A stretch of DNA of 64,000 nucleotides from Escherichia phage MN03. This document shows positions 55,311 to 56,624 of the stretch, one piece after another. The stretch lies in the sequence record NC_070990.1; one strand, written 5' to 3'. How positions within the stretch are numbered: position 1 is the first letter of the stretch; each line of letters begins with the position of its first letter. The notes beneath the pieces were generated by a model. The model did no database searches. It saw only the letters and a program-made list of their open reading frames with translations, and had not been told where the DNA came from. A program made the position numbers and the translations under genes.

Positions 55311-56624
55311 TTAGTTATTTGTTTCCATGTCAAAAGAGATTCCACGACCCGCTTCATCGGCAAACCGAACTGTACGGGTTTGAGGTTCTAATACTTCAGG
55401 GTTGTTAGCAATAAAGCGATCAGCGAGACTATCTCCTAAATCTTGTTCCATACCTTCATCAGTCCAGATAACACGAGAAGGGGCGTTGATATCACCAACA
55501 GCAAAACCCTGACCAGAGAACTGACGTGCGCTAACAGTTAAGCCGTTTGGTCGACCACGAGAAGGACTAGCCATCCATCTCTCCATAGAATCACTTGTGA
55601 TACCAAGAGCTTCTTCAAAAGATGTTCTACGAGTAGGGCTTACTCTTCGTGACTCTTGTGCTCGACGCATTGCAGGGGCTACAAACACCCCTTCAATTGC
55701 ATTGTGTCGGTTAGGCTCCTCTTCTCGACCAAGCAGATCACCACCCGTGTTAGTCGTTAGGTTTGTTAACCCTTCAGACCAATACGCACGAATCTGACCA
55801 GACCCGTGAACGCTTGACATTAACAGAATCTCTTCATAAGGGATTCCAAAGAATAGACTCATGTCTCGGTTAACACAATATTGAGCACTTGTTGTATCCT
55901 CAATAAGAGCAACCTGACCTCGTTCGTTGACTAGTTGGCTAACTGGTTGAGGTGTGGGAAGATATCGAGTTTGGGCCATGTATTGATGAGCAACCGATGG
56001 AGATGAAAACCTCAATACCTGAGAATTGGGCCACTTCTTGTGGACATATCGGATTTCACGACTAGAAACAACCACTGGACAAGGGGCGGTCATAGCCAAA
56101 TACCCATGGTTGGTCATGAACAAGTTATCAATAGTCATCGCACCACGGCACATCATAGGGAAATTATCCAACACCTCTTCAATAGAAGTAGGATAGTTAA
56201 ACATGAATTGAATGCGGGTTCCATTCCACTGAAATTCAATAATATCAGTGAATGTTAATTGAGAACTCCCAGCATAGGACTCGTTTGTAGCCTCAGCAAG
56301 AAGAGATGAATACTCAATATCTTGTGACTCAAGCCATTCCTTCACGTTACTTTCAATCTCCCGTCCAAGCATTTGCCATCGCTCAGTTGGGACGAAAGTA
56401 TTTTGAGTTCTTGGTGTTTGTCCTCTGACAATAAAGATATCAATGTCATGTGGGGCTATATTATTAAGCACAGCATCACGAATAGCCCCACCAGTAATGA
56501 TAGGACAAATACCGTCTGGAATCAAGTTGTTGTCAATTAATTGTTCAATGAAGTGACGACCAACAGTAATATCGGGTTGTTGAGCAACCTTATCTTCAAT
56601 TCGGTTAATCGGGATAACAATCAT
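55311..56624 (-). CDS. Pol-beta-superfamily nucleotidyltransferase with CCA-adding / poly(A)-polymerase-type head domain, plus ~250-aa Arg/Ser-rich C-terminal region
   Basis: IITGGAIRDAVLNNIAPHDIDIFIV matches the GG.(V/I)RD...D.D head motif of class II tRNA nucleotidyltransferases; start at 56624 (ORF track 56681). Confidence 0.55.
   Translation of the reverse strand: MIVIPINRIEDKVAQQPDITVGRHFIEQLIDNNLIPDGICPIITGGAIRDAVLNNIAPHDIDIFIVRGQTPRTQNTFVPTERWQMLGREIESNVKEWLESQDIEYSSLLAEATNESYAGSSQLTFTDIIEFQWNGTRIQFMFNYPTSIEEVLDNFPMMCRGAMTIDNLFMTNHGYLAMTAPCPVVVSSREIRYVHKKWPNSQVLRFSSPSVAHQYMAQTRYLPTPQPVSQLVNERGQVALIEDTTSAQYCVNRDMSLFFGIPYEEILLMSSVHGSGQIRAYWSEGLTNLTTNTGGDLLGREEEPNRHNAIEGVFVAPAMRRAQESRRVSPTRRTSFEEALGITSDSMERWMASPSRGRPNGLTVSARQFSGQGFAVGDINAPSRVIWTDEGMEQDLGDSLADRFIANNPEVLEPQTRTVRFADEAGRGISFDMETNN

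Follow-up and report, generated by a model that had tools for sequence, protein, structure and literature searches.

The DNA analysed here is a stretch of 64,000 nucleotides from Escherichia phage MN03 (NC_070990.1), to which we refer as the window. Its replication region includes a minus-strand gene for a nucleotidyltransferase (NTase), one of the few conserved enzymes in the replication region of the Gordonclarkvirinae to which no role has been assigned. The subfamily consists of common, broad-host-range coliphages that are under consideration for therapy and show unusual resistance to restriction systems. The best explanation that we can offer, and one that we hold tentatively, is that the NTase is a catalytically intact, head-domain-only nucleotidyltransferase of the class II CCA-adding enzyme and poly(A) polymerase superfamily, within its Gad2-like branch (PF26128). 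It does not represent a new kind of enzyme: the family of phage NTases is a known one, in which this is a divergent member with an existing annotation.

The NTase open reading frame (ORF) runs from an ATG at 56624 to a stop codon at 55311-55313 (Table 1). A longer reading frame starting with a GTG at 56681 would intrude into the upstream gene, and the annotations of relatives use the ATG. Over the 2.6 kb tested, the NTase region has 100% DNA identity to phage phiEc_1 (LC768462.1; Kuravirus, Gordonclarkvirinae). The records of relatives already call the gene 'nucleotidyltransferase', as does PHROG 12715, which matches the NTase over its full length (E = 1.5e-241); PHROG 1614 matches it as well (E = 2e-7). 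The orthologue in phage SU10 has been seen by proteomics, with one peptide (PMC4281155). The gene is real, expressed, and conserved, and matches to promoters or terminators around it are no commoner than in shuffled sequence.

Table 1. Coordinates in the window of the NTase gene, its parts, and its immediate neighbours.
Feature	Position	Strand	Description or basis
NTase coding sequence	55311..56624	minus	437 amino acids (aa) + stop codon; ORF list
NTase residues 1-205, Pol-beta-type catalytic 'head' domain	56010..56624	minus	kept across the whole family
Motif A, G45-G46-A-I-R49-D50 ... D60-I-D62, metal-binding carboxylates	56439..56492	minus	family alignment
NTase residues 206-290, small, mostly helical subdomain after the head	55755..56009	minus	AlphaFold2 predicted local distance difference test (pLDDT) 73-93
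NTase residues 291-437, predicted disordered tail, clade-specific	55314..55754	minus	pLDDT <50
T7 gp4-type primase/helicase, heading the compact gene block	57177..58967	minus	PHROG 239, E = 1e-175; Pfam DnaB_C
DNA polymerase 3'-5' exonuclease subunit, upstream neighbour	56626..57183	minus	Pfam DNA_pol_A_exo1; PHROG 'DNA polymerase exonuclease subunit'
dCTP deaminase, downstream neighbour	54768..55301	minus	Pfam DCD, E = 3.6e-34; PHROG 1663

It took exhaustive HMMER searching, over 1.84 billion representatives, to expose the family to which the NTase belongs: 179 clusters matched at E<=1e-3, and at E<=1e-30 there were 15. A word-indexed homologue search with an N-terminal profile gave almost nothing new. 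In about 25 clusters, whose proteins measure 270-490 aa, residues 1-215 are shared, as is a short helical stretch, beyond which the tails cannot be aligned. Motif A reads GGAIRD-x9-DID and is invariant in all 26 of the diverse family members aligned, so it is not a chance match; its G-G and D-x-D counterparts are likewise invariant in an alignment of small phage NTases and in one of Gad2 homologues, both of which are described below. The full set of invariant positions in the family comprises G45, G46, R49, D50, D60, D62, F64, Y117, I128, Q139, P156, Y193, and K197, and the retention of the metal-binding carboxylates throughout the family speaks for catalytic activity.

The genes of the block are closely spaced: the stop codon of the exonuclease subunit lies 1 nt ahead of the NTase ATG, and the dCTP deaminase begins 9 nt past the NTase stop codon. 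The gene order from primase/helicase through exonuclease and NTase to dCTP deaminase is kept in Kuravirus, Suseptimavirus, Bas89, and two more distant viral contigs of 82-88 kb. A tblastn search found the NTase in 96 phage records, and exactly 96 records carry an exonuclease subunit that is at least 60% identical; since the two counts agree, the NTase is universal in the Gordonclarkvirinae as sampled. In the next relative, Cronobacter phage A24 (Grimontviridae), the primase/helicase, exonuclease, and dCTP deaminase are present with no NTase between them. The NTase is thus accessory: it has been inserted into the replication operon, is fixed throughout the Gordonclarkvirinae, and is not an integral part of the replication module; the dCTP deaminase is independent of it.

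Predicted fold and determinants of CCA addition

An AlphaFold2 (AF2) model of the NTase, built from the 26-sequence family alignment, is confident over residues 1-290, mostly with pLDDT >90, and disordered over residues 291-437. Helices at residues 209-220, 247-259, and 263-270 make up the small subdomain that follows the head, which is partly conserved in the family alignment. When the model was compared with the PDB using Foldseek, the best 39 matches were all class II CCA-adding or A-adding enzymes, and the predicted structure has the head-domain fold of the class II enzymes. Identity is low, at 13-18% to the class II CCA-adding enzymes of Bacillus stearothermophilus (1MIV), Thermotoga maritima (3H37), and Escherichia coli (Cca). 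A stand-alone 'CCA-adding enzyme head domain' from Streptococcus pneumoniae (NP_344798.1; 2LA3) is bacterial and smaller than the window NTase, and it scores below the full-length class II enzymes.

The original prediction, made from the window sequence, had described a GG-I-RD...D-I-D head motif followed by some 300 residues that were Arg/Ser-rich and unlike a canonical tRNA-binding body. The motif is present as described, and hhalign aligns it with the GGAVRD of E. coli Cca. The departure from a canonical body is also borne out, in that the AF2 model has a subdomain of ~85 residues and then disorder, without neck, body, or tail domains. The ~300 residues are not one Arg/Ser-rich stretch, however: residues 1-290 have a confident fold, and disorder is limited to residues 291-437, which contain 11.6% Arg and 8.2% Ser and yet are net acidic, with an isoelectric point (pI) of 4.9.

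Within this disordered tail the middle is Arg-rich and the end acidic. We considered and rejected the possibility that it serves as a basic RNA-binding leg like that of E. coli poly(A) polymerase I (PAP I, PcnB; 3AQL), because the tail is net acidic; PcnB has a full neck and body and a strongly basic C-terminus with a pI of 9.7. The head of E. coli Cca is likewise acidic, however, so protein charge is no guide to substrate. Tails are less conserved than heads, with mean identities within Kuravirus of 79% and 91% respectively and an indel hotspot near residue 395, and those of different genera cannot be aligned. We note by eye that the C-termini of family members are often aromatic and frequently in an acidic setting (..GGWTF, ..IRWQW, ..RRFNF, ..TTWDW, ..SEYDF, and ..DPFDFNA in Vibrio phage VP506); that of the window NTase is ..RFADEAGRGISFDMETNN. 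The T7 proteins gp2.5 and gp4 bind the polymerase through their C-terminal tails, and the aromatic and acidic ends of the NTase family appear reminiscent of these.

The Pfam PolyA_pol head model matches residues 43-126 at 17.8 bits, under the cut-off of 23, and in the family as a whole there are only sub-threshold PolyA_pol matches, in 15 of the 26 members. A PDB search with the single NTase sequence gave no match, and with the family profile the sole match was a CCA enzyme, over motif A (E = 0.003). Alignment of the window family by hhalign to the single E. coli Cca or PcnB sequence recovered motif A alone or nothing meaningful. Motif equivalences were read through a bridge alignment of 50 small phage NTases, and they represent sequence-profile mapping and not structural superposition. 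The first step of this chain joins residues 40-203 of the window family to the small NTases (hhalign Prob 98.8%, E = 1.2e-16), and the second joins the small NTases to residues 2-161 of E. coli Cca (Prob 95.1%, E = 3.2e-8).

By this mapping, motif B, the RRD that senses the ribose 2'-OH, runs from R-R-D in Cca through S-F-D in the small NTases to N154-F155-P156 in the window NTase, where the Pro is invariant. Motif D, the EDxxR that forms the protein template for CTP and ATP, runs from E-D-P-L-R through T-N-P-F-S to K197-W198-P199-N200-S201. Neck, body, and tail domains for tRNA binding are found neither in the AF2 model nor in the Pfam scan, which gave no matches to tRNA-NTase accessory domains. 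The NTase therefore retains the metal site (GG-x-RD and D-x-D) and the predicted class II head fold and, judged from the profile mapping and the model, has lost RRD, EDxxR, and the tRNA-binding body and tail, all of which belong to the class II CCA-adding enzymes. Since these are missing, a canonical CCA-repair enzyme is unlikely. The NTase probably falls outside the true CCA-adding enzymes, and that tempting annotation is corrected here on account of the absent determinants of CCA addition; the label should be read as one of fold ancestry and not of function.

Relationship to Gad2 and to the small phage nucleotidyltransferases

The closest sequence relatives of the NTase outside the kuravirus group are the small (~170-250 aa) head-only phage NTases (PHROG 1614; PF26128/PolyA_pol head) that provided the bridge above, examples being those of Ralstonia phage DU_RP_I (gp11), Vibrio phage VP506, Pseudomonas phage LKD16, and Aeromonas phage phiAS7. 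They share with the window NTase a head-only architecture and adjoining T7-type replication genes, but are half its size and lack both the subdomain at residues 206-290 and the long tail. They also retain an Asp at the RRD position, where the window family has the invariant Pro, and Pfam PolyA_pol matches 46 of the 50. The nearest predicted viral structures are likewise small NTases, from T7-like, phiKMV-like, and Vibrio phages. A hidden Markov model (HMM) of the small NTases, run against 414 ORFs of the window, matched the NTase only, at 41.6 bits; with the same HMM, E. coli PcnB reached 26.6 bits and Cca 17.9 bits. The NCBIfam and PADLOC profile libraries gave no match to the NTase, and precomputed Pfam annotation assigns PF26128 'Gad2' to most of the kuravirus orthologues and to nearly all of the small NTases.

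Gad2 is a 400-aa protein of Bacillus phage SPbetaL7 that counters the Gabija defence system (bioRxiv 10.1101/2023.05.01.538930). Its knockout makes the phage Gabija-sensitive, a homologue from a Brevibacillus prophage cancels Gabija defence, and Gad2 is itself a predicted nucleotidyltransferase, with ~170 homologues of which nearly all are in phages or prophages (same source). We aligned Gad2 and seven homologues taken from the supplement of that study, a set of eight that includes the two validated proteins. The small NTases align with this set over 152 columns (hhalign Prob 97.7%, E = 2e-12), and the window family aligns with it directly over 123 columns (Prob 71.5%, E = 3.6e-5). BLASTP between the window NTase and Gad2 finds motif A alone, and the kinship between the two is detected through intermediates.

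Gad2 and the NTase are both phage-encoded and have in common an N-terminal head-type core of the form h-A-G-G ... D-x-D, a conserved Gln-containing strand (IQxM and LQMI, respectively), and an F-D or F-P segment where RRD would be expected. They differ in motif A, which reads GGAITS in Gad2 and GGAIRD in the window NTase, and in that Gad2 has a folded C-terminal region of ~220 aa with no equivalent in the NTase, a Bacillus host, and another genomic locus. All of the genomic contexts examined for Gad2-like relatives are phage-like. These profile comparisons place the NTase in a broad, Gad2-like, phage-specific branch of head-only NTases, as a distant relative of validated Gad2. The original prediction overlooked this group as the closest family, along with the existing annotation of the gene and its discussion in the literature. 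The placement provides a concrete lead, that of counter-defence with Gabija as a specific candidate system, and makes the NTase an E. coli model for the Gad2-like family.

Counter-defence and competing functions

In our reading, the NTase would be catalytically active as a nucleotidyltransferase, its specificity for substrates being either relaxed or different. It would move a nucleotide from a nucleoside triphosphate (NTP), possibly a deoxynucleoside triphosphate (dNTP), onto a 3'-OH or other acceptor without a CCA template, and the disordered tail probably directs it to a partner. By analogy with the action of Gad2 against Gabija, its role would lie in counter-defence or host takeover and not in tRNA maturation; this is the function that we consider most likely, though we put it forward with less than even confidence. 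Consistent with it, Gad2-like relatives occur near anti-defence genes. The metagenomic phage contig L022 encodes a small Gad2-like NTase at 5001-5609 and a Gad1-family gene at 9889-10609, 4 kb apart, and in contig L019 a small NTase lies just after the family A polymerase gene, with an Acb2/Tad1 hairpin domain a few kb off. We note that in L022 the two genes are separated by sugar-metabolism genes (GLF and a glycosyltransferase).

Several observations weigh against a counter-defence role. Similarity to bona fide Gad2 is weak and confined to the NTase core: the window NTase goes unmatched by an HMM of the eight Gad2 homologues, the C-terminal region of Gad2 (about residues 180-400) has no counterpart in the NTase, and no alignment extends past the core. 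The PF26128 assignment rests on precomputed annotation and is marked weak for a protein 96% identical to the window NTase. The NTase is universal at a fixed position in the subfamily, and anti-defence genes are usually patchy in distribution. We found no paper that links kuraviruses with Gabija or Gad2. Finally, the mechanism of Gad2 itself was still unsolved in February 2026 (PMC12904381), and the analogy thus supplies no chemistry.

The original prediction favoured an enzyme acting on RNA 3' ends, either repairing or extending damaged tRNA ends in the manner of CCA-adding enzymes or tailing RNAs like a poly(A) polymerase. Either activity would be in keeping with the closest solved folds, which belong to E. 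coli PAP I and the CCA-adding enzymes of class II, and with a motif A of the GGxxRD type found in both. Some small relatives sit in an RNA-repair context, adjoining RlaP in contigs L016 and L020 and near RNA ligase genes in L017 and the P0128 contig, and defence systems that damage tRNA ends exist. Nonetheless, the hhalign chain replaces RRD with N-F-P156 and EDxxR with K-W-P-N-S, the neck, body, and tail are missing, the PolyA_pol match is below its cut-off, and the NTase tail is net acidic and so unlike the basic RNA-binding leg of PAP I. The host, moreover, has its own Cca.

The tRNA content of the phage also counts against such a role. ARAGORN finds no tRNA gene in the 64-kb window, and Rfam at gathering thresholds finds no RNA family there, in agreement with the original prediction that the window has no recognisable tRNA genes. 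A scan of the full genome, which had been proposed as a check, qualifies this picture: the ~13.5 kb of the complete genome (LC768462.1) that lie outside the window include a tRNA-Arg(TCT) gene, at record positions 23023-23098. This is the phage's only tRNA and it encodes its own 3' end, ACCA. We therefore regard an RNA 3'-end enzyme as unlikely, and tRNA 3'-end repair is not supported in the form first proposed, given the absence of RRD, EDxxR, and the tRNA-binding body and tail.

The genomic settings of head-only NTases raise a different possibility, that of a replisome-associated terminal (deoxy)nucleotidyl transferase acting on DNA 3' ends or primers and tethered to a T7-type replisome by its disordered tail. 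In several unrelated phages these genes adjoin those for T7-type primase/helicase and family A polymerase: besides the kuraviruses, a small NTase lies between the primase and DNA polymerase genes in the T7-like phage DU_RP_I, the order in VP506 is ThyX, NTase, primase, polymerase, and L019 has the polymerase-NTase pair mentioned above. Loss of the RRD sensor of the ribose 2'-OH could relax discrimination between NTPs and dNTPs, and the aromatic and acidic C-termini (those ending in ..GGWTF, ..RWQW, ..EYDF, and ..DPFDFNA) would suit such tethering by their likeness to the tails of T7 gp2.5 and gp4. Set against this is the absence of the NTase from the otherwise similar replication module of A24, and we consider a replisome function of this kind distinctly unlikely.

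Recent work describes Gabija as sensing DNA ends, and for this reason the counter-defence and DNA-end readings can merge. In the merged form, a replisome-tethered, template-independent (deoxy)nucleotidyl transferase would alter the 3' ends of phage DNA or replication intermediates and so protect them from host systems that sense DNA ends or cut DNA, such as Gabija, other OLD-family nucleases, RecBCD, and restriction enzymes. We give this little probability, but if true, it would be the first mechanism for the Gad2 family and would help to explain the broad resistance of the Gordonclarkvirinae to defence systems.

The pairing of the NTase with a dCTP deaminase has been discussed by others. Humolli et al., in the BASEL-2 paper, found the Gordonclarkvirinae to be remarkably resistant to restriction-modification without known modification genes, and proposed, purely as a hypothesis, that the locus of dCTP deaminase and nucleotidyltransferase could be a DNA-modification pathway (PMC11990801). 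A pathway of this kind, whether modifying DNA or acting on the nucleotide pool, would account for the resistance, and the 9-nt spacing of the two genes fits a joint function. The window keeps 10 EcoRI and 34 EcoRV sites, so these are not avoided and site avoidance cannot explain resistance to EcoRI and EcoRV. However, with a ThyX thymidylate synthase encoded in the same region, ordinary production of dTTP would account for the dCTP deaminase; A24 has a dCTP deaminase and no NTase, and NTase relatives are also present where a dCTP deaminase is lacking. We know of no Pol-beta-type NTase that modifies DNA bases, and a role in DNA modification or the nucleotide pool seems improbable.

As a separate observation, some short palindromes are strongly avoided in the window as a whole, with CCWGG occurring 4 times against ~148 expected, GATC 118 times against 238 expected, PstI and KpnI sites 0 times against ~11 expected, and BamHI once.

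A cGAS/DncV-like nucleotidyltransferase (CD-NTase) that acts in signalling, or a decoy of one, which the original prediction had raised as a divergent signalling enzyme, is extremely improbable: there is no PADLOC CD-NTase profile match at E<=1, class II heads score clearly higher in the fold search, the motif is GG-x-RD and not GS, and neither an invariant third catalytic acid, as in the CD-NTase triad, nor a Mab21-type helical lobe was found. The HMM check suggested at the time thus gave a sub-threshold PolyA_pol head and nothing among the CD-NTase profiles. Fold and profile comparisons showed no similarity to toxin-type NTases of the MNT, AbiEii, or MenT kinds.

Other features of the replication region

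The family A DNA polymerase of the phage is split. Its exonuclease domain is a separate 185-aa protein (56626-57183, minus strand) adjoining the primase/helicase, and its polymerase domain (614 aa, PF00476) is encoded at 46040-47884 (minus), ~9 kb downstream in the same orientation. The NTase as the missing catalytic subunit of the split polymerase was considered and rejected, given that a family A polymerase domain is present. ThyX, a thioredoxin, and a PhoH-like protein are encoded between the polymerase gene and the NTase block. The thioredoxin gene (52293-52622, minus) is accompanied in the replication region by one for a Dps/ferritin-like 'DNA-binding protein' (53194-53805, minus). T7 DNA polymerase depends on thioredoxin for its processivity, and the phage may thus supply a thioredoxin of its own. 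We note that the offset between window and LC768462.1 coordinates is not constant: its values at the polymerase gene and at the NTase region are 181 bp apart, which implies either an indel somewhere between them or that the window comes from a near-identical isolate.

Directly downstream of the dCTP deaminase are three back-to-back ORFs of 65-69 aa (54152-54361, 54361-54570, and 54570-54767, all minus), which look like a tandem triplet of paralogues because their lengths and C-terminal ends are alike (..KVIYY, ..GKVHY, and ..SKVYY). A 104-aa ORF at 49401-49715 (minus) has an extremely high content of Arg, Lys, Gly, Ser, and Ala (MADHVGKRDYAQERRTAIARGETGVGSKSGDAQRHRARR...) and probably encodes a disordered basic protein.

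Upstream of the replication block is a cluster that includes a gamma-glutamyl cyclotransferase (GGACT) at 59187-59606 (minus), a 398-aa protein at 60113-61309 (minus) that has no Pfam match and whose relatives are annotated as a RimK-like 'ribosomal protein S6 glutaminyl transferase' or an ATP-grasp enzyme, and a glutamine amidotransferase at 61753-63444 (minus); the annotations of relatives continue beyond this with amidoligases. In Vibrio phage VP506, too, the NTase gene has an ATP-grasp gene in its vicinity.

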